A stretch of 20,000 bases of DNA from an uncultured virus (IMG/VR IMGVR_UViG_3300007231_000006) (IMGVR_UViG_3300007231_000006), one strand, 5' to 3'; shown: positions 4,181 to 19,569, numbered from the stretch's first letter. A program made the numbers and translations. Notes: generated by a model from the sequence alone, not told the origin.

Positions 4181-5605
4181 TTAGTTCAACAACATGAAGT
4201 TGTTAGCACCTTGAGTTACTAAACATCTCTCTGACAAGAAGTTTACAGTCATTGCGTCTAGAGTAGACGTAACAGCTCCAACTGAACCAGTGATCCAAGT
4301 CTTCATCTTGCGAGACTCAGTGTTAGATGCTCTGTAACGAACGTGTAGGAAAGGACGCTTAAGGTTCTTACCCATTTGCTCGTCATATACAGAAGAAGTA
4401 CCAGCAGGGATGATTACACCTCTGATGTCCTCACCGGCAGTAGCGTTAGCATTGATGCCTCCACGTGTAGCCAGATCGTTTAGGTACTTCCAGTCTGACT
4501 TGTAGAAATCGTAAGATCCGCGACGGAATCCAGAGAATCCTAGGTTTAAAGCCATATCCTCATCGTTCTCGAATACCCCGTAAGAAGTACCTCCAGCACC
4601 GTAAGAATTCATAGAAGCTAGCATATCGTCAAGAGCTAAAGCTGTTGCGCGATTAACAAACATCATGTTCTCTTCGATAGCACCGTTCTTATCGAACTCA
4701 GCTAGGATAGCATCAAACTCAGCTAGGTCAGTAGCAGCATTAACACCAGTAACACCAGAAGACTGGTGACCACGGTCTTTAATAGCAGCAAATAAACCTT
4801 GTGTACCAACTAGTCCGTTAGCACCACCCAAGATAGTAGAAGCGTCAGCAGCTTTCTCAGACTCAATCATACTCATCTCTAAGTAATCAGTGAATCGAGA
4901 GCGTGTCTCACCTTCAGCTTTTAGGTACCACATGTAACCGTTCTGTCCATCTTCACCTGAAACTTCAACCCAGCCAACTTGCGCAGCATCAGAACCTGAT
5001 ACTTCGTATTGATCCTTAAGGATAATTGGCTTGTTAGTGAAAGTAGTGAAAGAAGGCTTAACAGATCTAGCTCCACTGTACTCAGTTCCTTTTGAATTCT
5101 CAGAACCAAACACTAGAACACGAAGATCATTGTCTGTATCTGCGAAACCAACGTCACTTAAGTGAGCTCCACCGTAAGGTAGCGCAGTGATAGTTTGGTT
5201 ACCAGCAGCAGCTACAGTTACTAAAGCAGTAACAGTTTGACCTCCACCTGCAATTAACACCTGATCACCAACACGGATACCGTGAGTAGTAGTTTGAGCT
5301 ACACCGTCGATGTCGTGAGTAATATTAATCGTACTAGCAGAAGCGTCTAAACAGTCCGCTTTGTACGAAAGGTGTAATCTACCTTGCTCTGACCAAATAA
5401 CTTGATCAGCTGACATAGCCTCTTCAGCTCCAACTTGTCCTAGGAAACCAGCAATAGTACGCTTTCCGTATACTTCAGCCTCCTTCTCCATTAGATCTGG
5501 AAGGTATTGCTGTGCCCATCCATTTGTTTGGATGTCTAAATAATTGTCCGACGTTACTTGCTGTATTGGTGCAGCTTGAAACGACGTTCTTGCAGTAATT
5601 GCCAT
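4181..5605 (-). CDS. Major capsid protein, 474 aa
   Basis: Position after portal and acidic scaffold-like gene, followed by a strong terminator. Motifs WAQQYLPDL, WSEQGRLH, NKPIILKDQYEVSGSD, LGFSGFRRGSYDFYK and FLSERCL match crAss-related/flavobacterial phage MCPs as I recall them. Confidence 0.85.
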   Translation of the reverse strand: MAITARTSFQAAPIQQVTSDNYLDIQTNGWAQQYLPDLMEKEAEVYGKRTIAGFLGQVGAEEAMSADQVIWSEQGRLHLSYKADCLDASASTINITHDIDGVAQTTTHGIRVGDQVLIAGGGQTVTALVTVAAAGNQTITALPYGGAHLSDVGFADTDNDLRVLVFGSENSKGTEYSGARSVKPSFTTFTNKPIILKDQYEVSGSDAAQVGWVEVSGEDGQNGYMWYLKAEGETRSRFTDYLEMSMIESEKAADASTILGGANGLVGTQGLFAAIKDRGHQSSGVTGVNAATDLAEFDAILAEFDKNGAIEENMMFVNRATALALDDMLASMNSYGAGGTSYGVFENDEDMALNLGFSGFRRGSYDFYKSDWKYLNDLATRGGINANATAGEDIRGVIIPAGTSSVYDEQMGKNLKRPFLHVRYRASNTESRKMKTWITGSVGAVTSTLDAMTVNFLSERCLVTQGANNFMLLN

Positions 5606-5623: not shown

Positions 5624-6784
5624 TTATTTTTTGTTTTTAATCTTGAACTTAAAAGAGGCGGAATCATCGCCTAGCACTCTCATTTTTATACCTCCAGTCT
5701 GGCCTTCTCCATGAGAGGATCTAGCTGTTGTGTTGATATTCTTGGCTTTAGCCACGCTGTCTTTCAACGCGTCTGTTTTGCCTTGTTCATAAAAGTGCTG
5801 AGCAACAGCATCAGCGTTCATAGCGGTATACAAGCCTTTGTGATAACCTTTAGCATCATTAATAGACTTGTCTTCGTTTAAAAACTTTTTAATGAAGTTG
5901 CCTATATCGCTCTGGTTCTCTTTAACTTGCCCCGCATCTTTAACGTTAAATCTAAATCGTTTGTCACCGACATTGTATTCAAAACCTTTGAACTCGTCGT
6001 TGAAAACCTCATTGGTCTTCTTGTCAAACCTAGTTTTATTTAACTCTGCTGTTTTGTTTGATTGCTCCGTCTCTTTACTGTATCTGTTGAAGAAATCTAT
6101 AGCCTTCTGCTGTTCTTGTGTTAGTTTGCTTCCAGCTTTGATCTCTTCGTAATATTTAGACTTTTGCCCGTCTAAATAGGTCTTAGCCTCGGCAACTTGC
6201 TCTTTCAAGGCTAATTTTTTTCTTTTTATCTGTGTCTCATCTTCTATATCTTCGTCAAACGAAAACTTGTCTTCCATAAGAAAATCAATCTCGTCGCTAG
6301 ACAGATGAGGTTTTGTGGCTTTATAGTAGTCTTGAAGTACGTCTTTAGAATCTAGCTCGTCTACGTTTTTGTTTAATCTAACGTAGTCCTCTAGATCACC
6401 ACCTGTGTCATCCATGAAATCCAGTAGCTTCTGAATCTTTTCTGGAATTACAGCGCCTGACTCTTCTGATGCCTGGATAGCCTCAACGGCTTCTTCGCCA
6501 AGCTCGTCCGCCTGCTGCTGCTCAACCTCAGTAATCTCTTCGATTAGAGATGTTTGGTTTTCGTCAACTGCTTCTGGCTGAGCTTCTTCAGCTACCACCT
6601 GTTCCTCTACAACTTCTTCCTTTACGTTGTCTGTCGGTGGTGGTGCAGATAAATCTACTTTAACAACGCTAGGGTCGTCTTTTGTTGCAAACTTACCCAG
6701 GTCAATAACGTTCTCTTCTTTCTGCTCAACTACCTTTTCTTGAACTTCTGGTTCTTCAACCTTTTCTTTCTTTTTTTTACTCAT
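5624..6784 (-). CDS. Putative capsid scaffolding/assembly protein, 386 aa
   Basis: Very acidic, E-rich disordered N-terminal third, then a helical coiled-coil region (FMDDTGGDLEDYVRLN..., AQHFYEQGKTDA). Lies between portal and MCP. Confidence 0.6.
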   Translation of the reverse strand: MSKKKKEKVEEPEVQEKVVEQKEENVIDLGKFATKDDPSVVKVDLSAPPPTDNVKEEVVEEQVVAEEAQPEAVDENQTSLIEEITEVEQQQADELGEEAVEAIQASEESGAVIPEKIQKLLDFMDDTGGDLEDYVRLNKNVDELDSKDVLQDYYKATKPHLSSDEIDFLMEDKFSFDEDIEDETQIKRKKLALKEQVAEAKTYLDGQKSKYYEEIKAGSKLTQEQQKAIDFFNRYSKETEQSNKTAELNKTRFDKKTNEVFNDEFKGFEYNVGDKRFRFNVKDAGQVKENQSDIGNFIKKFLNEDKSINDAKGYHKGLYTAMNADAVAQHFYEQGKTDALKDSVAKAKNINTTARSSHGEGQTGGIKMRVLGDDSASFKFKIKNKK

Positions 6785-6801: not shown

Positions 6802-9192
6802 TTAACTTCCTATTTGCGGGGTGAAGTCATCTAAACCGATTCCACCACCGAGTATATCATTACCTGAAGACTCAAACTTTTTAGCGGGTTTTGGTGAATT
6901 TGTTTGCTTCATTACCTCCCTTCTGTCTTTACCGTCTTCTTTAAGCTGCTCCATACCTTTCGCGTCTTGCCTTTCTTGCCCGCGAAGTTTTTGATTAAGC
7001 TCAAATTCATAAGCCATTAACTGCTTTTTTAACTCAACTTCTTTCTGTAGGTAAACAAGCTTAGCCTCTGACTTCATTTGCTCTAGGCCCATATCAGCCT
7101 GCGACTTAGCCTGGTTCTTCTGCATTTCAACTTGAGACGCCTGTTGCTGAGCTTGTGAGTTAGCCTGCGCTTGCGCTTCCATGTCTTGCTGTCTAATCTG
7201 CTGATCGCGCTCTTGCTTCTTCTTTCGCTTTATCTTTAGTAGCTGATTAGCAAGCTTAACGTTCCTAACAGTTCGTATGTCAATAGCATCGTCAAGATCT
7301 ATCAACTGTTGGGCTAGTGCTGTTTGGATGTTATTCTCTAGCATCTGCTTCTCTTCTTCGTCAGGCTCTAGTTCTATAAAGATACCAAAGTCGTAAAGGT
7401 AAAGCTCTGACATCTCCTTCAGCGTCGCTACGTTGTGAGCGCCAAGCGCCTGAACAAACGCGTCAGCTGTTGGCGAATACTCTAATATATCTGAAATCCG
7501 CAAAGACAAAGCGTTAGCCACTTCAGTCGTCAAGTACATCGATGAATCTAAGATGTGCCTAGTAGCTACGTTTGAATTAGCCGCTGCTAGCTTTTGAACC
7601 CCAACTAAAGACTTTGGATCGGGTGAACTGCCATCTCTAGCCTCGTTAAGGCCAGTTACATCTCTTATCATTTGAAGATAGTAGTTATAAGTCTGTATTA
7701 GACTTCCTATCTTGTTTTGACCAGCGCCGTTAGATATCTGCTGAATAGGTATCTTACCTGGATTAGCATCCCCATCGCCAGTGAAAGACCTACCTATAAC
7801 AGAGCCTGTTTGGAAGAACATATTAAGCGCTTCCTGCGGGTTGTAGTTTGTTCCGTTGCCTAAGTCAATTTCAGCAAGTCCATCAGCGTCAAGGTAAACC
7901 CCATCGGGTACCATGCGTGATAAAACCTGCTGTAGTTTTAAATGCGTTAATTGTATCGTGTCAGCAAAACCAGTGATTCTGCTAACTATAGATTCAATTC
8001 TTCCGTTGTACATTCTAGGCGCTACAATAGAGTAATTCATTTTTACCTTATTGAAGTCGCTCTTAGAACGCATCATGTTTTCTGCCCGCTCCCACTTTAG
8101 TAGGATGTCAGTACCTAGAATCATAACACCTTCATACACGCACTCAACTGACCGCTGTAGCTTTGAGTAACCACCTTCTTTATCTTCTGGTGGATTAAAA
8201 GTGTCAGGTTTTTCTATGGCTTTATAGCCGCCAGTAGAAGTTTCTTTAACCTTGTAAACATTGTTCATAAAGGTCTTGTAGTTAAAATACAAAACCTGAA
8301 CCTTGTTTATATCGTTGACCTCTGTCCTGTAGGTTCTATTGCCGTACCTTTTAGACGCAGAGCTTTGGATTTTCTCTAGATCGTCAAGCGTGAGATGCTC
8401 AAACTCTCTGGCAAGCTCGTTAATGGGTATAGTCTTTACTTCACCTACGTAGTATACGTCTTCGAAATAAGGTGATTCAGTTCTAGAGTAAACTATATTA
8501 GCTGGGTCAACGTAATCTATAGTAACACCTTCACTCCAGTTAAAACTAGTTTTTACACAACCAAGTCCTAGCACCGTAAGATCGTAAACAAGTCTACGTC
8601 TAATCAAGTCGTAGTCATTACCGTCTAGAAGCACGTTTATAGCTTGCTCTTCGGCAATCTCCACAGCTTGCTTATAGTTTAGCTGCATATGGAGAGAAAG
8701 CTCCTCCTCGGTCTCCGGAAGCTCCTCTGCGTTAGTCTCAGATAAATCTATATTAAATAAAGCCTTTGAGTTGTCGTTAAACTGCTTCGACTTCATGTCA
8801 CGGACTATAGCGTCCATGTACTCAGTACGCTTGCTAACTCCGTATTGATCTTGCGAATAAGCTTTTATACTGAACATACGGTCAGATAGACCGTTAGTAA
8901 CAATATCAACAAACTTAGGTATAATAGGTACAGGCTTCCAGTCTAAGTTTAAATAAGATAAATCGCCGTTTATAGAGAGCTCATCTTTATACTTCTGTAT
9001 AGACTGCTCTCCTCTAGCGTATAATCTAAGGCTGTGAAACTTATTCTTGTTATCATCAAACTTACTACCTCCAGCATCGTGAAACCACTCTTGCTCTACG
9101 GCTCTAGCAACCTTCAACCCATACTCTGGGCTCATTTTTTCTAGGTCACTTACAACCTGAGACGGGAAATTAACATATGCAACGTTAGCCAT
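6802..9192 (-). CDS. Portal protein, 796 aa
   Basis: Directly after TerL. Motifs LRLYARGEQSIQKYKDEL, LDWKPVPIIPKFVDI and IRDVTGLNEARDGS. Q-rich C-terminal coiled coil like the P22-type portal barrel. Confidence 0.85.
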   Translation of the reverse strand: MANVAYVNFPSQVVSDLEKMSPEYGLKVARAVEQEWFHDAGGSKFDDNKNKFHSLRLYARGEQSIQKYKDELSINGDLSYLNLDWKPVPIIPKFVDIVTNGLSDRMFSIKAYSQDQYGVSKRTEYMDAIVRDMKSKQFNDNSKALFNIDLSETNAEELPETEEELSLHMQLNYKQAVEIAEEQAINVLLDGNDYDLIRRRLVYDLTVLGLGCVKTSFNWSEGVTIDYVDPANIVYSRTESPYFEDVYYVGEVKTIPINELAREFEHLTLDDLEKIQSSASKRYGNRTYRTEVNDINKVQVLYFNYKTFMNNVYKVKETSTGGYKAIEKPDTFNPPEDKEGGYSKLQRSVECVYEGVMILGTDILLKWERAENMMRSKSDFNKVKMNYSIVAPRMYNGRIESIVSRITGFADTIQLTHLKLQQVLSRMVPDGVYLDADGLAEIDLGNGTNYNPQEALNMFFQTGSVIGRSFTGDGDANPGKIPIQQISNGAGQNKIGSLIQTYNYYLQMIRDVTGLNEARDGSSPDPKSLVGVQKLAAANSNVATRHILDSSMYLTTEVANALSLRISDILEYSPTADAFVQALGAHNVATLKEMSELYLYDFGIFIELEPDEEEKQMLENNIQTALAQQLIDLDDAIDIRTVRNVKLANQLLKIKRKKKQERDQQIRQQDMEAQAQANSQAQQQASQVEMQKNQAKSQADMGLEQMKSEAKLVYLQKEVELKKQLMAYEFELNQKLRGQERQDAKGMEQLKEDGKDRREVMKQTNSPKPAKKFESSGNDILGGGIGLDDFTPQIGS

Positions 9193-11411: not shown

Positions 11412-11683
11412 CTAGATCTACCTTCGGCAAAACCTTTAAAAGTAGCTTCTTTACTAGACTCGCTTAGCACGCTGTCTAAAAGGTTCTGCTCTTCTTGAAT
11501 TCTAGTGAGTATTTCAAACGCGTCGAATATAGCAAGCTTTTTAGTAGCAGCAGCGTTTTTAAGTCTATCAGCTGATATATCGTCATCAGAATCTATAATA
11601 GGTTCTTTAGCGACTTTAATCAACTCATCAACTGCTACTTGCCCAGCTTGGATTATACTCTTCTTCGTTTCCTTGATATTCAT
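11408..11683 (-). CDS. Small helical protein coupled to terL, candidate terminase small subunit, 91 aa
   Basis: Start reassigned to ATG 11683 (MNIKETKKSIIQAG...). The stop overlaps the terL start (ATGA). Helical composition. TerS role inferred from position only. Confidence 0.5.
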   Translation of the reverse strand: MNIKETKKSIIQAGQVAVDELIKVAKEPIIDSDDDISADRLKNAAATKKLAIFDAFEILTRIQEEQNLLDSVLSESSKEATFKGFAEGRSR

Positions 11684-12233
11684 ATTTAATTGTAATAAAT
11701 TTAGACAGCACCCTATACATCCTTTGGCCTTCAACGATAAACTCAAACTCGCTGCTCGGCGTAAAGCCAACTAAGCTGCCCTCTTCTACTGTGCCGTCAG
11801 AGTACTTGACTATACCAACAAGCGGCATCTCTTCTAAGTCCTCTACTTCAAACCCTTCTATAGCAGACTGGTGCTTTATAGGTTGTACGAAGCAGTAGCC
11901 GTTTATGCTCTTCCAGTTATCGTTAGACTTGTACAGGTATAGCTGATCCGGAGATACTAAGTATTTTCCTTCTTCTAGAAAAGCCCTGCTGTTCTTCTCA
12001 CGGCCTTTTACATCGTGCCATCGCCTAAAAACGTTATGGTGGACAAGTACCGTGTCACCGTCTTTTATATCTGTGTTAGATATCTTAGGCGTGGTTAAAA
12101 CAACAGCCTCTCTATTTATATACTGGTGGTTGAATATCTCTGAGTTTATAATCAACTCATGTTCATCCACTTTTTTAACGTTGTTATATCTCTCACCTTT
12201 AGGTGATACAACAAAATTATATATTGATCTCAT
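11628..12233 (-). CDS. Tandem GroES-like (double co-chaperonin-fold) protein, 201 aa
   Basis: Two halves each follow a GroES-like pattern: FVVSPKG..KKVDEHELII..REAVVLTTP..IKDGDTVLVHH and CFVQPIK..EMPLVGIVKYS..VEEGSLVGFTPSSEFEFIVEGQRMYRV..I. Confidence 0.55.
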   Translation of the reverse strand: MRSIYNFVVSPKGERYNNVKKVDEHELIINSEIFNHQYINREAVVLTTPKISNTDIKDGDTVLVHHNVFRRWHDVKGREKNSRAFLEEGKYLVSPDQLYLYKSNDNWKSINGYCFVQPIKHQSAIEGFEVEDLEEMPLVGIVKYSDGTVEEGSLVGFTPSSEFEFIVEGQRMYRVLSKFITIKYEYQGNEEEYNPSWASSS

Positions 12234-12725: not shown

Positions 12726-12857
12726 TTAACGCCCTTGCCCTCGGTATTTTTTCTTGTATAAGGGAGAAGACTTTTGGTTTGATTGTTTTGTTTTCGCGTG
12801 AACCCCAGGTCTATTGATACTTTTTGATTCGTACGTATTTACGGCTTTATTAGCCAT
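12726..12857 (-). CDS. Basic microprotein, 43 aa, ending KKKYRGQGR
   Basis: Not in the ORF track. Hand-translated as MANKAVNTYESKSINRPGVHAKTKQSNQKSSPLYKKKYRGQGR*. Fills the intergenic gap and has the same AATTTAATCATG-type initiation context as its neighbours. Confidence 0.8.
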   Translation of the reverse strand: MANKAVNTYESKSINRPGVHAKTKQSNQKSSPLYKKKYRGQGR

Positions 12858-13223: not shown

Positions 13224-13616
13224 TTATTTTTTTACTTTTTCTAGTGATCTTCCGCCAAAATATGCACCGATCACGGTTATTAACACTAATTGAAGAAGGT
13301 CTACGTATGAGTCCTTCACGTTGAAATTTATTGTCCCTGCATCAATGAATATCAATAACATCGTGCATACTATCAAGAATATAAGAACCATAGGCCTTAC
13401 GTTCTTTGAAAGCCAAGAGTCAGATCTTAAGTCCGCCTCCCATCGAGAAGTGATGTTCTTTTCCATCTCTATCTCGTAATTCGCTACAAGCTCTTTTACC
13501 TTGCGTTCGGCTTCAAGTTTCTCGTCCTTCGATGTAGTTAAGTTATCTAGCACTCCACCGACGTTTTTTATAAGGTCGGCAGCTCCACCAGAAAGTACTT
13601 TACTAAGTATACCCAT
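13224..13616 (-). CDS. Holin, GTA-type 3TM holin-like family, 130 aa
   Basis: RWEADLRSDSWLSKNVRPMVL motif, two C-terminal hydrophobic segments and the terminal GAYFGGRSLEK signature. Confidence 0.75.
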   Translation of the reverse strand: MGILSKVLSGGAADLIKNVGGVLDNLTTSKDEKLEAERKVKELVANYEIEMEKNITSRWEADLRSDSWLSKNVRPMVLIFLIVCTMLLIFIDAGTINFNVKDSYVDLLQLVLITVIGAYFGGRSLEKVKK

Positions 13617-14089
13617 TATTTACCTCTGTTTTTTCTCGCTTTTTCTTTAGCGTTGTGATCTCGCAGTTCTTGTCTCTTCTTTGCTTTCTCAGCAGAGGAA
13701 AGGTTTGCCATAGCTCTTGAATCTTGTTTTTCAGCCTTGTCGCTAAGCTTTTTCGCTTTACCGGTGTTACCCCTTGCGCTTGCTTTAAGGGATCTTCTTG
13801 CTAGGTTAGCCGCTTTATTGTCCGCAGCGTAACCGGCTTCCCCGTCAACTCGGCGCGTTACAGCTGCTACTCTACCGAATTTCTTGTTTTTGATTCTCTC
13901 TCCTCGATCTTTCATAGGAGACTCCGCTTTTGAAGCATGAACCGCTTTACGCTGGGCATCGCTTGCATATTTTTTCATAGGAGATTCTGGCGCCGCTTCG
14001 ATCTTGGCTTTTAGTTCCTCTGGTAAGTTATGCTGCTTACCTACTAACGCTTTTGTCATTGGGCTTTTGCCCCTCATTTTAAATGCCAT
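13616..14089 (-). CDS. Highly basic low-complexity protein with MAFKMRG leader and SPM(K/T) repeats, 157 aa
   Basis: Start reassigned to ATG 14089. K/R/A-rich; contains KSPMTK, ESPMKK and ESPMKD. Confidence 0.75.
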   Translation of the reverse strand: MAFKMRGKSPMTKALVGKQHNLPEELKAKIEAAPESPMKKYASDAQRKAVHASKAESPMKDRGERIKNKKFGRVAAVTRRVDGEAGYAADNKAANLARRSLKASARGNTGKAKKLSDKAEKQDSRAMANLSSAEKAKKRQELRDHNAKEKARKNRGK

Positions 14090-14090
14090 G

Positions 14091-14309
14091 TTAATTCTTT
14101 TTTGCAAATTTTTCTACACCACTAATACCAAACGAACCTAAAACCACCCAAACAAACGAATTGTAAACAAAGTCGTTAATTACTAGATCCTTACCTATTG
14201 CTCCAGAAACAGTGTCTGCAATCATTACCAGAACCATTATTGCAAAGGCTACAAATCCAACTATTGCTTTTTCGTTCCATTCGTTCGAGTCTTTAAATAT
14301 ATCAAACAT
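14091..14309 (-). CDS. Small two-TM membrane protein (holin/antiholin-like), 72 aa
   Basis: Start reassigned to ATG 14309 (MFDIFKDSNEWNEKAIVGFVAFAIMVLVMIAD...FVWVVLGSFGISGVEKFAKKN). Two hydrophobic segments and a basic C-terminus. Confidence 0.65.
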   Translation of the reverse strand: MFDIFKDSNEWNEKAIVGFVAFAIMVLVMIADTVSGAIGKDLVINDFVYNSFVWVVLGSFGISGVEKFAKKN

Positions 14310-14661
14310 CGCTCTCGTTTTTAACAGCTCGTTTTTCCCAAGGGAATACGTTGTCTCCTTCTGGGTACCACTTACCGTTGTATTTAATCTCACCGTCTTT
14401 ACGAGGGTAAGTTTTTTTACCATCTCTAACAAAATCGTCACCGTATGCTATTTTACCGCTCTTCATCTCAGAGGCATGTAAGCTTTCATGCGCTATAACT
14501 CTTTTTTCTAGAGCGCTGCCCTTAGGCACGGACTTATCTATATGTATGCTTCCATCCATATTAGCCTCACCCATTATGCCTGATTCAAGGTTTTTTCTAA
14601 ATATAGGCGTATCCTTGGAATTCCTATTCTGGCGTTTCTCTCTACCAAGTTTAAAACCCAT
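14302..14661 (-). CDS. Minimal zincin-like (HExxH) metallopeptidase, 119 aa
   Basis: VIAHESLH motif preceded by the strands GEANMDGSIHI, plus a downstream PWEKRA that could supply a Glu third ligand (gluzincin-like). Confidence 0.65.
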   Translation of the reverse strand: MGFKLGREKRQNRNSKDTPIFRKNLESGIMGEANMDGSIHIDKSVPKGSALEKRVIAHESLHASEMKSGKIAYGDDFVRDGKKTYPRKDGEIKYNGKWYPEGDNVFPWEKRAVKNESDV

Positions 14662-14662
14662 A

Positions 14663-15103
14663 TTATCTATCTTTATCTCGTATCATATCATCTACAGACT
14701 TGCTATAGACTTTATCTGAATACGATTTGTTTTTATAAAAAACACTCCTGTCAGAGGTTGGTATATCCTCTTCACCTAGCAAGATACGGTATATCCTACT
14801 TACTAGCTGGGAGCATTGGAATGAAGTCTTGTATACAGAGTACTTTATACTCTTACCGTTTCTTTGCCTCCAAGTCTCTATCCATCCAGCTGATCGTAGC
14901 TTCTCCCACCTTCTCTTATCCCAAGAGTACGTGTAAGCGCCCTCGATAAATTCGTTGCGGGTAAATCTACCCTTATGATCTAGGTATATCAATAACTCTA
15001 GATCGGCATCGGTTAACCCATAAGTCTTACAGGCCCACTTACGCGTGAGCCTGTAGTACTTAAGGATATTCAATTCACGCAGATCCTGCGCGGTTAGTCT
15101 CAT
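14663..15103 (-). CDS. Putative winged-helix (MarR-like) DNA-binding protein, 146 aa
   Basis: YGLTDADLELLIYL...LRSAGWIETWR...YSVYKTSFQC pattern resembles MarR-type wHTH; basic protein. Confidence 0.5.
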   Translation of the reverse strand: MRLTAQDLRELNILKYYRLTRKWACKTYGLTDADLELLIYLDHKGRFTRNEFIEGAYTYSWDKRRWEKLRSAGWIETWRQRNGKSIKYSVYKTSFQCSQLVSRIYRILLGEEDIPTSDRSVFYKNKSYSDKVYSKSVDDMIRDKDR

Positions 15104-15106
15104 GTG

Positions 15107-15481
15107 TTATGAGTCTATAGTTATAGCTAGAGCGGATATCGCTGGCATACCGGCCGCGTACACACTCTCTGTGAGGTCAGCGACTGTGTGCATGATGCCT
15201 CCGTGAGGGTGTGCGTTTAGCAAGCTTGAGACAGCTTCTGCTATCTCCTTGCATTTATGCCCGTTGATATCAGCTTGGTCATCTGCTACCGTTGCTGAGT
15301 TCAAATGCGTTAGCACAACTTTATCCAGGCCATCTCCCACGCCGGTTTGGCCTTCAAAGTATAACGTTGTAGTTGTAGCTGACGTTGGGTCTACACCTAT
15401 GAATCTTGAGGCTGGCCACATAGCAGAATCGCCTGTTGCGTCTGCTCCATCGCCATCTGAGAAGTATAAATAATTTTCCAT
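15107..15481 (-). CDS. Acidic beta-rich protein, paralog of 15506..15937, 124 aa
   Basis: Shares YLYF, PAS.(F/Y).G..PT, L.FE, HK and VAD motifs with its neighbour. Confidence 0.75.
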   Translation of the reverse strand: MENYLYFSDGDGADATGDSAMWPASRFIGVDPTSATTTTLYFEGQTGVGDGLDKVVLTHLNSATVADDQADINGHKCKEIAEAVSSLLNAHPHGGIMHTVADLTESVYAAGMPAISALAITIDS

Positions 15482-15505
15482 GTTATTATTTTTTTATGTT
15501 AATTA

Positions 15506-15937
15506 TTAAGCGATTGCGCATCCAGTTACATTTCCCAAGAATGCCTTGTGGTATACAGCTGTTTTAGTTCCATACTGAGCTGGATCATAAGAAGTGCCCG
15601 CACCACCAGTAGCTGTAGTAAGCTCTTTAGCAGTTGTCACTTCAGCATCAGCAACCACGATAACCCCAGCGTTTGCTTTATTAGGATTAGAGTTCATTAT
15701 AGACGCTAATGCGGCCATAACCTGCTTATGTGTATCCGTCGCTATAGTTAGGGTTACGACATTAACTGTGTCGGTTGCCACCACGTCTTCAAATGACAGC
15801 GTTAAAGCGTTGTCACCTGTTGGGTTAGCCCCTAAGTAAGAGCTAGCCGGAACGCAGATAGCCTCTGTCGTTGTAGCCACTTCTGCTTCCGCGAAGTAAA
15901 GGTAAGGGCCTTTCGCCCTAATTGATTGTTGTGCCAT
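15506..15937 (-). CDS. A/T-rich beta protein, paralog of 15107..15481, 143 aa
   Basis: Same shared motifs; A-rich initiation region AAACAAACAACTAATTAAAAAATTTTAAAATG. Confidence 0.75.
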   Translation of the reverse strand: MAQQSIRAKGPYLYFAEAEVATTTEAICVPASSYLGANPTGDNALTLSFEDVVATDTVNVVTLTIATDTHKQVMAALASIMNSNPNKANAGVIVVADAEVTTAKELTTATGGAGTSYDPAQYGTKTAVYHKAFLGNVTGCAIA

Positions 15938-15975
15938 TTTAAAATTTTTTAATTAGTTGTTTGTTTAAATGTTCT

Positions 15976-16008
15976 CCGTTTAAGGTTTGAGGTTCAAGGT
16001 TTAGGTCT
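15976..16008. repeat. Degenerate heptamer tandem repeat (AAGGTTT/GAGGTTC)
   Basis: Plus strand CCGTTT-AAGGTTT-GAGGTTC-AAGGTTT-AGGTCT in the intergenic region after groES. Confidence 0.55.
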
Positions 16009-16038
16009 AATATATATATCACACGTTTAGTGAGGTAG

Positions 16039-16296
16039 TTACTCCACTAAAACAACGTCTCTTGCTCGAATCACTTGGTATACTGTATCTGCCCAAGTTA
16101 TACCGTGTCCAGCATGTTTGTCGTAATATATAACATCTTTATCTTGTAGGCCTTCAACTAAGTTTCCAGTAGAAACTATAGTAGCCTTTACGTACCTATT
16201 GTCACTGTCTAGATCTTCTGTTAGAATTAAGCCTCCAACCTTTTTAGGTCCGACTTTCTCTATATCTACTACAATGTAGTCATTAATTGCTTTCAT
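16039..16296 (-). CDS. groES: Co-chaperonin GroES (phage-encoded), 85 aa
   Basis: MKAINDYIVV start, mobile loop KKVGGLILTE, ATIVSTGNLV, DKDVIYYDKHAG and terminal RARDVV; overlaps the groEL stop. Confidence 0.85.
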   Translation of the reverse strand: MKAINDYIVVDIEKVGPKKVGGLILTEDLDSDNRYVKATIVSTGNLVEGLQDKDVIYYDKHAGHGITWADTVYQVIRARDVVLVE

Positions 16297-17848
16297 CTGC
16301 TCTAGCGTTTGAGATTACACAATCAGCGGATATAATGGTAGACACTACAGAGCAAGCGTTTTTCAAAGCGGACTTAGTAACTAGAACTGGATCAATTATA
16401 CCAGCTTCTACCATGTTTACAAATTCGCCTGAAACTACGTCCATACCCTCGCCTTCTTCTAACGTTATGTTGCAGATAAGCCCAGCGTTGTCTAGTATGA
16501 CCTTGTAAGGAGCTCTTATGGCTCCAAACAGTATCTCTTCTCCCACCCCTTGGGGTGAAATTTTTTCAGAAGCGTTTAATAGCGCTACACCACCGCCAGG
16601 TACAATACCTTCTTTTAATGCTGCTTTAGTTGCGTATATAGCGTCTTCAGCTCTATCTTTCTTTTCTTTAAGCTCTACCTTAGAGTTTGCGCCTACCTTG
16701 ACAATAGCCACAGAACCTGATAAAGTAGCAACCCGCTCTTCTAGCTTCTTTTTAATAAAGCTATTCTTCTCTTCTTGAATCTTTTTAACTACAGAGTCAA
16801 TCCTTTCCTCGATATCCTCTGTCATGCCTTCTAGCGTTATAACAGTATCACTTGCCGATGTTACAGCATACTGTGCTTCACCTAGGTATTCTGGCGTTAT
16901 CATGTCTAGATCATCTCCTAGTGCTTCGTTTATAACTGTAGCGCCAGTGAGAACTGCAATATCTTCTGTAGCGTCGTTTTTAGTGGGTCCAAAGCCAGGT
17001 AGATCAATAATGTTTACCTTAATGTTTCCTTTAACCTTGTTCATCATAAGAGCCGCTTTCACTTGCTGCGCTACAGGAGCGATAATCAGCAGCGCGCGGC
17101 CCTTCTTAATAACATGTTCTAGAACACCTTGAATCTTCCTCACGTTAGGTATCTCACTAGAAACAACTAGAACTAGAGGATTGTCTAGCTCTACTGTATT
17201 CTTCTCGGTATTAGTTATAAAGTGCTCGGACGTAATCCCACACTCTATTTTAACTCCATCTACTAGTTCAACGTACGTATCCTCTGTCTCGCTAGACTCC
17301 ATAAGCACGACACCACCTTTACCTACTTTTTCGTAAGCTTCCGCGATAGTTGTTCCCAGGCTAATGTCATTGTTGCAGCTAATAGAACTAACGTTGAATA
17401 GCATATCACCCTCAACTTTAGTAGCAATTTGTTCGAGATACTTATTGATCTTTCCCAAGCCAGAAGCAATCCCGCTTTTAACGTCTCTAATAGATGCATT
17501 TTTATAGTTGTCTTTGTTTACCTCATTTAACAACGCCTCGGCAAGAACCGTAGCGGTTGTAGTTCCATCACCAGCTTCACGCACTGTGTTGCTGGCGGCT
17601 TCTTTTATAAGTGTAGCACCTATGTTTTCAACGGGATCGTATAAGACTACGCTTTGGGCAACGGTTACTCCGTCTTTTGTGATCACCGGTTTACCGCGTC
17701 CATCTTCATATATGACGCACTTTCCAGAAGCGCCAAGTGTGGATTTTACGGCTTTGGCCAGCTTGTGAACGCCGGTCATTATTTTATGCTTAGCTCCCTG
17801 ACCAAAGTCTAATTGCTTGATCAGTTCGCTAGGAATGTTATACTCCAT
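16283..17848 (-). CDS. groEL: Chaperonin GroEL (phage-encoded, divergent), 521 aa
   Basis: ITKDGVTVA, ATP-binding AGDGTTTATVLA, PGFG, ELKEKKDRAEDA (catalytic Asp region), GIVPGGG and GIIDPVLVTKSAL. No C-terminal GGM tail. Confidence 0.95.
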   Translation of the reverse strand: MEYNIPSELIKQLDFGQGAKHKIMTGVHKLAKAVKSTLGASGKCVIYEDGRGKPVITKDGVTVAQSVVLYDPVENIGATLIKEAASNTVREAGDGTTTATVLAEALLNEVNKDNYKNASIRDVKSGIASGLGKINKYLEQIATKVEGDMLFNVSSISCNNDISLGTTIAEAYEKVGKGGVVLMESSETEDTYVELVDGVKIECGITSEHFITNTEKNTVELDNPLVLVVSSEIPNVRKIQGVLEHVIKKGRALLIIAPVAQQVKAALMMNKVKGNIKVNIIDLPGFGPTKNDATEDIAVLTGATVINEALGDDLDMITPEYLGEAQYAVTSASDTVITLEGMTEDIEERIDSVVKKIQEEKNSFIKKKLEERVATLSGSVAIVKVGANSKVELKEKKDRAEDAIYATKAALKEGIVPGGGVALLNASEKISPQGVGEEILFGAIRAPYKVILDNAGLICNITLEEGEGMDVVSGEFVNMVEAGIIDPVLVTKSALKNACSVVSTIISADCVISNARADESN

Positions 17849-17880
17849 ATTATATTAAATTAAATTATAGTGGTTTGGTT

Positions 17881-18147
17881 TTATTTACTGGTCCTGCGGG
17901 CTTTTCTATCGCCTCTTTTATCGTTGGTGTCCGCTCCTTGAGCGATGGGTTGGCTGGCTCTCTGGTCTTTAACGTCTGATCGGATTTCTTTCTTACGCTT
18001 GCGCTGGTACTTGTTGTACTCCTTTACTTCTTCGCGAGAACCTCCATGGTCTTTTAGAGACTTTCTCTCTTCACGGATATCCTGGCGCATTTCTTTTCTA
18101 GATCTATCGCCATAGAATTTATCCATGCCTTTCATCTTGAATGCCAT
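17881..18147 (-). CDS. Very basic small protein with MAFKMKG leader, 88 aa
   Basis: Start reassigned to ATG 18147, just after the upstream stop. K/R-rich. Confidence 0.75.
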   Translation of the reverse strand: MAFKMKGMDKFYGDRSRKEMRQDIREERKSLKDHGGSREEVKEYNKYQRKRKKEIRSDVKDQRASQPIAQGADTNDKRGDRKARRTSK

Positions 18148-18148
18148 G

Positions 18149-18367
18149 TTAGTTTTTCTTTTGGCGTACAATTTTACCGTTTTTCATGACGTAATCGTTG
18201 TCTACTACGAATCCTTGAGCATCTACTTCTAGCTTACCTTTAGGATCTGCAATAGGAGCACCAGTGTCTACGTCTGAGTACTTGCCGTTTTCGTTTTTAA
18301 TGCTTTGTCCAGCAATAGTTGTCTTTTTTCCTTTAGCAAAAGGTGCACCCTTCATCTTAAACGCCAT
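18149..18367 (-). CDS. Small basic protein with MAFKMKG leader, 72 aa
   Basis: Clean ORF beginning MAFKMKGAPF. Confidence 0.75.
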   Translation of the reverse strand: MAFKMKGAPFAKGKKTTIAGQSIKNENGKYSDVDTGAPIADPKGKLEVDAQGFVVDNDYVMKNGKIVRQKKN

Positions 18368-18372
18368 AATTT

Positions 18373-18669
18373 TTATTTTTTAAAAGTTTTGACCACTTTT
18401 GGTCCGCTAATTGTGTCTAGTTTTTTAGCAAAATACTCAATGCTTCCGTCAATAGCGGATTCTGCGCCATCTAAAGACTCTCTACGTGTCACGGAGTGCC
18501 ACTTTTCGCCTTCTTCTGGGTTAGATACCTCGGTTTGGTAAAAACCGTTGGGTAATTGAGTAATTCGCCAGTGGCCTTTGTCGGCCATATGCTTCCATTG
18601 CCCGATTTCTTTATCGTTAGGCTTCGATGCGTACGCTGTAGACGTACTGTTGTAGTATAAATAGGTCAT
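18373..18669 (-). CDS. Conserved hypothetical protein, 98 aa
   Basis: Clean ORF with globular composition (WRITQLPNGFYQTE..W..VTRRESLDGAESAID). Confidence 0.75.
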   Translation of the reverse strand: MTYLYYNSTSTAYASKPNDKEIGQWKHMADKGHWRITQLPNGFYQTEVSNPEEGEKWHSVTRRESLDGAESAIDGSIEYFAKKLDTISGPKVVKTFKK

Positions 18670-18726
18670 TTTCTTTGGTTTTATGACTGTTTATGGTATA
18701 GGGACTTTCCCTACGTTAGTTTATTA

Positions 18727-19089
18727 TTATCCTTTAGTCCAGTAGGCATATTCTAAGATGCAGCTTGCCGTGTCGGCTCTAGCTTCTAAACCAGCTCCAT
18801 CGTTTATGGGGAAAAAAGCAAACTCTCCAGGGCTTAATCTGGCATACTGTACGCTCGCTGTAGTTTGAAGTATGACGAAGTTTGTCGTGTCTATGTTTTT
18901 AGCATAGAAATACTTTACTCCACTAATAGCCTCATCTACCAGCTCTTGATTATCGGATGTTGTTATAGTGACCCTTGATATGCCGATCGCTGGGATGGTC
19001 ACAGTTAACGAGTCAGTTACTGATAGGTTTAAAGCCTCGCTTGTTGCGTCTGAACTTGTCAGCGTCAATGTTGGTACTAGTGTTGCCAT
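18727..19089 (-). CDS. Small T/S-rich beta protein, possible virion component, 120 aa
   Basis: Clean ORF with triple TAA stop. Thr-rich strands and YFYAKNID..NFV..RLSPGEFAFFP pattern. Confidence 0.65.
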   Translation of the reverse strand: MATLVPTLTLTSSDATSEALNLSVTDSLTVTIPAIGISRVTITTSDNQELVDEAISGVKYFYAKNIDTTNFVILQTTASVQYARLSPGEFAFFPINDGAGLEARADTASCILEYAYWTKG

Positions 19090-19092
19090 CGT

Positions 19093-19569
19093 TTAGAGAT
19101 TTCTTTTTCGGTCTTCCTTTTTACGCTCTGAAGCTGTCAAACTAGCCCGTCGCTTTCGTTCCGCCAAAGCAGCGGCTTTATTTTTATTCCTTTCATCCCG
19201 CCCTGCCTGATTCGCGTTCGTTCTGGCACGTGCTTTAGCTTGAGATGCTACGTCAGCTCCCGTGACATCTCTATCACGCATCGCATTAGCAGAAGCCTCG
19301 TTGGAGGCCATTTCAGTTGCGGTTTTTTCTCTAACCGCCTGGCGCTCGTCATCTGACATGTCGTTGTACCCAGACCCGACACGGACGCCGCGCAGTGCTT
19401 CAGCGTCTTTATTCTTAATGACCGTTGGGTCTATATCGCTCCCTGTGCCCATAGCGCCAAGCCCCTTCAACAACTCATTTGTAGCGCCTGGAACTGGTTT
19501 TCCATCCTTCATCGGACTGCCAATGCCGTAGTTACGGTACATCGGTGTTCCCTTCATTTTAAATGCCAT
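19093..19569 (-). CDS. Low-complexity protein with MAFKMKG leader, SPMK motif and basic C-terminus, 158 aa; first gene of the minus-strand arm
   Basis: MAFKMKGTPMYRNYGIGSPMKD...; A/R/K-rich C-terminal half. Confidence 0.75.
   Translation of the reverse strand: MAFKMKGTPMYRNYGIGSPMKDGKPVPGATNELLKGLGAMGTGSDIDPTVIKNKDAEALRGVRVGSGYNDMSDDERQAVREKTATEMASNEASANAMRDRDVTGADVASQAKARARTNANQAGRDERNKNKAAALAERKRRASLTASERKKEDRKRNL

Follow-up and report, generated by a model that had tools for sequence, protein, structure and literature searches.

Leader-bearing genes at the locus

The window (the whole 20,000-nucleotide stretch that was analysed, with 28 proteins) belongs to a GroEL-coding phage of the Flavobacteria type. 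Four of its late genes, all on the minus strand, open with the peptide MAFKM[KR]G. These genes and their neighbours are arranged as follows:

19093..19569, minus strand: leader-bearing basic protein, 158 aa (leader at 19549-19569; SPMK linker at 19507-19518)
18149..18367, minus strand: leader-bearing basic protein, 72 aa (leader at 18347-18367)
17881..18147, minus strand: leader-bearing basic protein, 88 aa, directly upstream of groEL (leader at 18127-18147)
16039..17848, minus strand: groEL-groES pair within the leader-gene cluster, from family matches (context)
14302..14661, minus strand: minigluzincin-like metallopeptidase, 119 aa, leader MGFKLG (HExxH at 14476-14490; third-ligand candidate E109 at 14335-14337)
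13616..14089, minus strand: leader-bearing basic mosaic protein, 157 aa (leader at 14069-14089)
14054-14065, 13973-13984 and 13910-13921, minus strand: SPM[KT] module borders in the 13616..14089 protein

The seven-residue leader reported in the first-pass annotation is present at all four starts, as MAFKMKG at 19569, 18367 and 18147 and as MAFKMRG at 14089; at the amino-acid composition of the window's 28 proteins, chance would give roughly 1e-6 starts of this kind. Two of the leaders are indeed hidden in the ORF track, which over-extends the genes from TTG codons at 18171 and 14107, and the peptidase does open with the variant MGFKLG, at 14661. The four 21-mers vary at third codon positions and by the one K/R change only, as the annotation's description of synonymous differences implied. 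Its further statement that the proteins then diverge completely holds in that no pair among the five (peptidase included) gives a significant alignment past residue 7 (best E 0.86), but fails for a second motif, SPMK, common to the 19569 and 14089 proteins (one exact copy in the former and two in the latter, which also has SPMT at residue 9). All five proteins are basic (pI 9.4-10.6), as had been noted for the four with the MAFKM[KR]G leader.

Searches with the four leader proteins matched nothing in Pfam and gave a single marginal hit in PHROGs. The protein at 19093..19569 has an extended N-terminus, MAFKMKG-x-P-M-x-RN[FY]G, a form found in 15 proteins, and its body has no relative in the fetched loci apart from one identical copy. 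The body of the 18149..18367 protein has two relatives there, both lacking the leader, and the protein upstream of groEL carries the leader in all 8 relatives found. A scan for promoters found 22, within the range of chance (16.1 +/- 4.1 expected). Four marine RNA runs contain contigs from close relatives that span parts of the region, leader genes included; such contigs are silent on expression and on start positions.

A peptide-level signal confined to late genes

Does the leader act as DNA or as peptide? The first-pass annotation had proposed to look for enrichment in the late arm, and had held that a motif equally common at non-structural starts would speak against a signal. Among 20 relatives, the leader is nearly confined to the late, structural strand, where 65 of 874 ORFs carry it, against 2 of 477 on the opposite strand (Fisher p 9e-11); both exceptions belong to a single unrelated MGYKMKT family. 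(Dropped before this count were G009, an unrelated 120-kb phage with one MAFKMKG ORF, and G027, which is identical to the window; G021-G025 were left out of the comparison.) Nearly all matches to MA[FY]K[ML][KR] (218 of 224) are the first Met of their frame, and of the matches to the leader's DNA pattern, 137 of 144 viral ones and 15 of 108 cellular ones coincide with the start of a gene. Synonymous codons within the leader vary like background N-terminal codons, which upholds the earlier claim of selection on the peptide; Gly7 uses all four codons (53/40/28/25), and the core also occurs inside proteins, as internal FK[ML]KG copies. Because of this synonymous variation and internal occurrence, the leader is best read as a peptide signal, and it is confirmed that the signal is at the peptide level and confined to late genes.

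A translation-initiation bias, or the relic of a duplicated 5' cassette that was fused to new genes, would account for the A-rich upstream context and A/T-rich codons, and perhaps for an upstream identity of 0.40 among leader genes against 0.35 among other genes. However, synonymous variation is free, the core is repeated internally, the leader is found neither on core late genes nor on the opposite strand (the MGYKMKT family apart), and no upstream element is common to the leader genes, so that such an origin seems very improbable.

The proteins behind the leader form a variable set, as the first-pass annotation had proposed: 347 proteins with a broadly defined leader fall into 196 clusters. 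Leader proteins consist of 17% lysine and 84% of them are net positive; the leader also stands on the folded peptidase and on neutral or acidic proteins, and is lacking from the large ejection-type proteins. Pfam searches with 150 of 194 cluster representatives gave 3 matches, of which DUF6321 alone was above the cut-off, and a selection of 30 proteins gave 9 with a PHROG match. No leader gene is present in the 46-50 kb read from each of five cultured or deposited relatives.

Scaffold tail, cargo modules and peptidase

Further into the window lie the genes for the head itself:

6802..9192, minus strand: portal protein (PHROG 6547; context and alternative receptor)
5624..6784, minus strand: putative scaffold (386 aa, pI 4.8), flanked by the portal and major capsid genes; labelled from position and composition
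5636-5653, minus strand: scaffold C-terminal FKFKIK, resembling the leader core
4181..5605, minus strand: putative major capsid protein (PHROG 13704, virion structural protein; 39-45% identical to Panino and elemo structural proteins)

The capsid label is drawn from gene order. The putative scaffold is P22-like in lying between portal and capsid protein and in being elongated, acidic and helical with a basic C-terminus. It has no family match and its model no PDB fold match; the model is helical, with a low-confidence C-terminal strand pair (366-371 and 379-383, pLDDT about 50). The capsid protein has a conserved acidic N-terminal stretch, and the portal holds a conserved YK[IL]K.

Most of the putative scaffolds end in a tail of the FKFK[IML]K type: F[KR][MILF][KR], a four-residue core defined after the data were seen, falls within 16 residues of the C-terminus in 15 of 19 scaffolds and in 1 of 1,332 other genes, and an F[KR][MIL][KR] tail is present in 74 of 79 scaffolds chosen without using the leader. 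For FKMK and AFKMK the scaffold comes top among 39 conserved families, and it falls to third place when the leader Gly is included; exact FKMK ends just 5 of 44 and 2 of 79 scaffolds. In a sister clade, scaffolds have KL[RK][IMV][KN] tails in all 20 records and there is no MAFKM start. Two leader-carrying genomes (G007 and G008) nevertheless have KL-type tails; the co-occurrence of leader and tail type comes from one clade contrast, and both trees are quick trees. A co-fold that paired residues 1-32 of the 19569 protein (alignment of 34 rows) with the capsid protein (73 rows) scored 0.00 in two runs, with a mark of 0.32 and controls not folded, and weighs neither for nor against docking.

The proteins that carry the leader are mosaics of modules common to the polyproteins of T4-like cyanophages. 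In those polyproteins the modules are preceded by xxE junctions, and in the leader lineage often by S-P-hydrophobic-K: in front of shared modules, E is found within four residues in 8 of 10 T4-like cases and in 0 of 32 from the leader lineage, and an SP-type motif in 0 of 10 and 17 of 32, respectively. The linker occurs 80 times among 209 leader proteins, where shuffling gave 7.2 on average and at most 13; only 29% of strict leader proteins contain the S[PA]-hydrophobic-K form, and before the LRDW module it is found in 0 of 9. Both clades that have the peptidase show an excess of SP[LMFY] in their basic late ORFs, and the motif is missing from 1,723 aa of five cultured relatives that have no peptidase. 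The same basic modules occur without a shared leader in the sister clade and in pelagiphage podoviruses, and the leader is therefore not needed for their retention; in HTVC010P, Skadi and the sister clade they stand alone. One leader-borne module corresponds to the N-terminus of a phi4:1 virion protein detected by mass spectrometry. Literature searches, with subscription journals and supplements outside them, found nothing on the leader or linker motif (MAFKM, FKMKG, SPKK in phages), on phage cargo mimicking a scaffold's capsid-binding element, on DUF6321 or on cyanophage virion proteomics with prohead protease cleavage.

The catalytic residues of the peptidase are intact. H58, E59, H62 and E109 are invariant in all 80 aligned relatives and HExxH is present in all 109 relatives in the loci, giving the HExxH and distal Glu of gluzincins. 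A profile search matched MJ1213/selecase (4QHF, E 7e-4). The model (pLDDT 80.7) has mostly zinc metallopeptidases as best fold matches, the top structural match (VIA) being PprI (Z 5.4, rmsd 3.9, 82 aligned), with IrrE/PprI, SPRTN, ArdC and Wss1 as fold neighbours at Z 3.5-5.4. It had no PDB Foldseek match at E 0.001, matched SprT-like viral models at E 1.5e-4, and in the ESM Atlas had unnamed viral clusters and SprT/M78-type neighbours only; the phage collection gave no match. Nineteen of 20 leader genomes have the enzyme (the linear contig of G002 carries leaders and lacks the peptidase), and there is one copy per genome in both clades. In 19 of 20 sister-clade records the only copy, which has no leader, is fused to a protein of >2,000 aa. 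Leader and giant fusion are shown to be alternative states of the peptidase. The sister giants are homologous to the giant of the leader lineage (39 of 39) and the giants are weakly and locally homologous to the MS-detected gp123 of phi18:3 (best E 2e-10); a search with a profile built on their C-terminal part matched no giant from a cultured phage. An SP-type motif marks the giant-peptidase junction in 43 of 59 cases against a 7% background, even after acidic runs; in the fused peptidases the motif may be what is left, in shortened form, of the TP strand that belongs to the stand-alone enzyme. The links to the virion, namely the phi4:1 virion-protein module behind a leader and the fusion of the otherwise leader-bearing peptidase to a giant virion protein in the sister clade, are circumstantial.

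What else could the leader and linkers be? The SPKK motif of histones is a DNA-binding or phosphorylation unit to which SP-x-K repeats may be likened, and the proteins could be histone-like DNA binders, acting in the cell or passively co-packaged, in which leader and SP-x-K repeats are DNA-binding or phosphorylation units with neither address nor cut site. Their lysine content and charge, the tandem SAMKMK/SPMK repeats, and the leaderless stand-alone modules of HTVC010P, Skadi and the sister clade would all suit this. It is nevertheless unlikely, given that the leader is also carried by the folded peptidase and by neutral or acidic proteins, and that SP-type motifs sit where T4-like polyproteins have xxE junctions and persist at the giant-peptidase junction.

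Leader genes cluster near groEL and the peptidase gene, the peptidase is nearly universal in the clade, and leader and linker merge in forms such as SPFKMKG, as might be expected if the leader were a docking signal for a non-capsid partner, either the peptidase (which would clear or activate late proteins at a set time) or the GroEL of the phage, and played no part in head loading. However, the sister clade has GroEL and the peptidase without a MAFKM leader, and in the stretches read from the elemo and Panino phages, GroEL occurs without any leader gene. The leader proteins, being mostly of low complexity and basic, would also be poor chaperonin clients, and a partner of this kind is quite improbable.

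Finally, the proteins could be head cargo with the peptidase as an injected effector, that is, an anti-defence or host-protein protease akin to the IrrE, SprT and ArdC-like zincins; nothing would then be processed, and in place of the capsid protein the leader would bind the portal or the acidic body of the scaffold. Such a reading modifies the preferred explanation rather than opposing it. The fold neighbours point this way, effectors would be expected to travel fused to the end of giant ejection-type proteins, and the pI of the scaffold and the YK[IL]K of the portal offer alternative receptors. On the other hand, the peptidase is single-copy in the genomes of both clades, which points to a core function, and the linker tracks the presence of the peptidase; we regard this variant as unlikely.

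A proposed head-loading system and its counterparts

The reading we prefer is that the leader probably loads the small basic proteins and the peptidase into the virus head, and we lean towards a two-part cargo system, made up of a head-loading address and peptidase-cut linkers, in this podovirus-like clade of marine Flavobacteria phages. Scaffold identity, receptor, packaging, cleavage and cargo fate are all steps that we infer. The address would be the N-terminal [AG]-F-K-[ML]-K/G strand, copying the alternating hydrophobic-lysine strand (FKFK[IML]K) that ends the scaffold. Inside the assembling procapsid, the leader would dock the basic proteins and the peptidase onto the scaffold-tail site, most likely on the major capsid protein, and so bring them into the head. 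The S-P-hydrophobic-K/N linkers that bound the interchangeable basic modules would be cut sites, at which the co-loaded minigluzincin may release short basic peptides that bind the head DNA or are ejected with it. The full mechanism, which would have evolved in an abundant marine clade, is a tentative proposal: a scaffold-tail copy as a general head-loading tag, a co-packaged minigluzincin rather than a serine prohead protease cutting at S-P-hydrophobic-K, modules re-tagged with xxE in T4-like cyanophages, and a sister clade delivering the protease by fusion to a giant ejection protein.

Why would this matter? In the portions of the literature cited here, the head-targeting tags with experimental proof are those of T4 and P1, and no receptor more precise than the scaffold core is given for the T4 tag. 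If true, the proposal would provide a tag of seven residues for a podovirus-like lineage, together with its template, the scaffold tail, and with a named candidate receptor and a named candidate protease. The small basic modules (DUF6321 and unnamed ones) that cyanophages, pelagiphages and Flavobacteria phages have in common would be virion cargo, and the protein load that these uncultured phages bring into their hosts could be listed by a sequence rule.

In T4, the capsid-targeting sequence (CTS) of IPI-IPIII is removed by the prohead protease gp21 (cited parts of PMC3012670 and PMC9026906), which cleaves at L/I-x-E (PMC9026906, same part). The analogy with T4 drawn by the first-pass annotation stands as a functional likeness only. 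Like the CTS, the leader is a short conserved N-terminal peptide on divergent, lineage-variable small proteins and is paired with a short candidate cut motif, and its relatives share cargo modules with T4-like cyanophage polyproteins. Unlike the CTS, it has a basic FK[ML]K core and, within residues 1-10 of each of the window's four proteins, no L/I-x-E; no gp21-type prohead-protease family is found among the 28 window genes (PHROGs, Pfam), and the candidate enzyme is a zinc minigluzincin. The gene set is podovirus-like, the leader core also occurs internally and at the scaffold end, and the system is known here from sequence.

In P1, an N-terminal stretch of up to 30 residues routes DarB into the head; the cited part of PMC9024508 finds no consensus among the Dar proteins, whereas the leader is one consensus across hundreds of proteins. 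The basic C-terminal domain of the P22 scaffold binds acidic residues of the coat N-arm (bioRxiv 10.1101/2022.12.13.520362, cited part), and the present lineage likewise has a basic C-terminal element on an elongated helical scaffold and a capsid protein with a conserved acidic N-terminal stretch. The P22 element is a helix-turn-helix, in contrast to the low-confidence strand pair predicted here, and that part of the preprint describes no copying of the scaffold element by cargo such as is proposed here. With the minigluzincins selecase and proabylysin (PDB 4QHF, 4JIU) the peptidase shares a length of ~110-120 aa, an HExxH helix after a small beta-sheet and a distal Glu; it differs in being a phage late gene with a leader or a giant-virion-protein fusion, and in its own C-terminal beta region, and its activity and specificity are putative.

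The window likely belongs to the Group 2 lineage of Flavobacteriaceae environmental viral genomes, which are related to Cellulophaga phage phi38:1 (PMC5332604, cited part) and with which it shares structural genes and GroEL; that part mentions no leader, peptidase or cargo set. A parallel in cargo storage is crAss001, a Bacteroidota podovirus-like phage that stores protein cargo in its head (PMC10172136). The main text of that paper does not use the terms targeting, protease or cleav-. The likeness lies in a podovirus-like phage with head protein cargo, as proposed here; the crAss001 cargo differs in being large, conserved and bound to portal and tail (PMC10172136, same part).

The late arm and its leader genes

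All genes in the window lie on the minus strand and make up the late arm of a tailed phage: groEL-groES, holin, large terminase, portal, an acidic 386-aa protein, a 474-aa structural protein and tail genes. The host is probably a member of the Flavobacteria, since the terminase and the 474-aa protein both find matches in Maribacter phage Panino, in Flavobacterium elemo phages and among the Cellulophaga phages (Pachyviridae, Pervagoviridae); the GroEL-coding group 2 genomes agree with this, as far as the consulted portions of PMC5332604 go. The source record, G000, is a 21.9-kb fragment, and genome-wide tests were therefore done on relatives. The features concerned are:

Starts at 19569, 18367, 18147 and 14089, minus strand: four genes beginning MAFKM[KR]G (the leader)
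Start at 14661, minus strand: 119-aa minigluzincin-like peptidase, variant leader MGFKLG
18373-18669, minus strand: 98-aa gene between leader genes, without leader or family; 18 ORF calls across 20 relatives
16039-17848, minus strand: groEL-groES pair
12726-12857, minus strand: basic protein of 43 aa containing SPLY, C-terminal end KKKYRGQGR
11628-12233, minus strand: second, longer GroES-like gene adjoining the terminase genes

The two-GroES layout is likewise annotated in cultured relatives, and ends like KKKYRGQGR are present in small pelagiphage proteins (L301:2786-2914, L303:2065-2214).

The first-pass annotation had placed all four leaders and the MGFKLG variant correctly. Two are masked in the ORF track by over-extended starts, as it said; both extensions begin at TTG. 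Its statement that the proteins then diverge completely needs qualifying: nothing aligns past residue 7, but SPMK is common to two of them.

Could the leader simply reflect translation-initiation bias, which the first-pass annotation had named as fatal to its reading, or a DNA repeat? From composition, about 1e-6 leader starts of this kind would be expected by chance. In 215 loci (80 chosen via a neighbouring gene, 135 via the leader pattern), 218 of 224 MA[FY]K[ML][KR] matches begin at the earliest Met of the reading frame. The proposed scan for late-arm enrichment, run over 20 related records of 48-69 kb, found the strict leader on 65 of 874 structural-strand ORFs versus 2 of 477 on the opposite strand (p 9e-11; genes called with a simple ORF script); many of these records were found via the leader, a bias that affects presence and leaves strand untouched. 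Both opposite-strand ORFs belong to a single MGYKMKT family. The leader DNA pattern stands at a gene start in 137 of 144 viral matches versus 15 of 108 cellular ones. Across 174 MAFKMK genes, synonymous variation is like that of other N-termini, all four Gly7 codons are in use, and the upstream DNA is A-rich and nothing more; FK[ML]KG is additionally found behind short extensions and mid-protein. Strand confinement, codon variation and internal copies thus make both translation bias and a DNA repeat unlikely, and uphold the earlier view that selection acts on the peptide. On this sequence evidence, the leader is a real, clade-wide peptide signal.

Most matches in the cellular control (L305-L424) lie within one conserved protein, a putative glycosylasparaginase found chiefly in Bacteroidota, where the surrounding sequence reads TTSG-MAFKM[KR]G-RVGDSP. 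An unrelated 120-kb phage, G009, has one 50-aa basic ORF starting MAFKMKG (L121:10001-10150), and none of the window marker genes searched for in its record matched. A depth-3 contig from RNA run X6 links two leader-gene starts (window 18117 and 19553), through either recombination between leader copies or an artefact of assembly.

Putative cargo, linkers and peptidase

The 347 broad-leader proteins fall into 196 clusters, 171 of them singletons, and Pfam names almost none. They are Lys-rich, with a net positive charge in 84%, and might instead act by leader-independent DNA binding. Many are mosaics of short modules also seen in multi-module PHROGs, and these recur in long proteins of the T4-like cyanophages S-RIM8, S-PRM1 and P-TIM68. 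There, glutamate precedes the module at 8 of 10 junctions, the pattern that gp21-type cleavage would predict (cut motif L/I-x-E in the sections seen of PMC9026906). In the present lineage, [SNE]-P-hydrophobic precedes it in 17 of 32 cases and glutamate in none; one module type among the 32 lacks such a linker. A count over 209 leader proteins gave 80 instances of S[PA]-hydrophobic-K (shuffle mean 7.2).

The peptidase profile matches minigluzincin MJ1213, and its fold matches are zincins with middling Z. HExxH and E109 are invariant in 80/80 relatives, with leader Phe3 kept in at least 90%. Nineteen of the 20 leader genomes have it in single copy, and a leader is present on 92 of the 109 relatives within loci. 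Of the 150 top-ranking profile matches, out of 645, 39 are proteins of >1,100 aa that carry the peptidase domain in their C-terminal part. Each of the 39 is a homologue of the leader lineage's giant late protein, which is itself a weak relative (E 2e-10 to 1e-16) of virion proteins from phi18:3, phi38:1 and elemo. In 43 of 59 fused forms the junction bears an SP-type motif (background 7%), in 35 of the 43 at a single fixed distance from HExxH; it could be a shortened version of the peptidase's own first strand. Other relatives (P0247, P0252-P0332) have long C-terminal extensions behind an SP-type linker, one group starting MAKPITN[KR]VK, possibly another leader type.

Cutting by the peptidase at the linkers is close to an even proposition, shading towards doubt. 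Alternatively, the cargo would be packaged yet unprocessed, the peptidase being an injected effector.

Putative scaffold tail and sister clade

The protein between portal and putative major capsid protein, with C-terminal end SASFKFKIKNKK, is a putative scaffold; the label is tentative because the AlphaFold2 model, elongated and helical, gives the tail as two strands at low confidence and has no fold match in the PDB. A leader-like core, a short match defined post hoc, occurs in the last 16 residues of 15/19 scaffolds versus 1/1,332 other genes, and in the last 16 of 74/79 scaffolds picked independently of the leader. The scaffold ranks first of 39 conserved families for plain FKMK or AFKMK and third for FKMKG; exact FKMK is found in only 5/44 and 2/79 tails. 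In P22, the scaffold attaches to acidic N-arm residues of the coat protein through its basic C-terminal domain (bioRxiv 10.1101/2022.12.13.520362, in the part consulted). Tails in cultured relatives are of a looser hydrophobic-lysine type. The putative scaffold of an elemo phage, gp27 (L298:27098-28117), starts MFKMKL, the leader core, and offers an experimental handle on the motif in a cultured phage; a search of 50 kb of this phage found no leader genes.

A sister clade provides a natural experiment. Twenty records chosen by the fused form (G028-G047; L505-L539, L589) have one peptidase each, in 19/20 within a >2,000-aa frame; the minigluzincin forms the C-terminal domain in a giant late protein of 2,000-2,700 aa, apparently split across two frames in G040. 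None has a MAFKM start (a looser pattern occurs in 3/20), and all 20 have KL[RK][IMV][KN] scaffold tails. In the terminase tree, six form a separate clade with SH-aLRT 100, next to the leader clade, whose value is 88. The same basic modules are retained without a common leader, several following an SP-hydrophobic motif. In basic late ORFs, the leader clade has 63 copies of SP[LMFY] over 17,491 aa, where shuffling gives a mean of 8.4, and the fused clade has 7 over 3,239 aa (shuffle mean 1.0); five peptidase-less relatives have none over 1,723 aa (shuffle mean 0.5; low power). From this comparison of tails, leaders and SP[LMFY] counts, a single phylogenetic contrast, the leader appears to track the FKFK-type scaffold tail and the linker the peptidase. 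Two records, G007 and G008, are exceptions, with KL-type tails yet one or two strict leaders; their scaffolds carry FK[ML] close to the N-terminus.

The leader is probably an address for head loading. That it works by mimicry of the scaffold's capsid-binding strand is a more tentative proposal, somewhat on the doubtful side: the leader would imitate that strand and so bring cargo into the head. The peptidase would enter via its own leader or via fusion to the giant protein, and would cleave cargo at the linkers. The leader might otherwise dock to the peptidase or to GroEL. One of the modules behind the leader has a match in the N-terminus of phi4:1 gp040, a protein whose annotation records detection in virions by mass spectrometry. 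On the other hand, the DUF6321 module is free-standing in pelagiphages and the clade's large ejection-type proteins lack the leader, both of which count against head cargo. Some post-tail ejection-type proteins have SP[LM]K in their first 25 residues (G017:35111, G017:37502, G020:27604, G039:20720); most do not.

Relation to known head-targeting signals

Our search of the openly accessible literature found no description of this leader system. In its mode of working, the leader may be likened to the P1 DarB signal (PMC9024508) and to T4's capsid targeting sequence (PMC3012670, PMC9026906). The T4 analogy of the first-pass annotation survives for a short leader that would work like a targeting sequence and fails at the cut site: the window leaders contain no L/I-x-E site, and the leader is not classed as a T4-type member.
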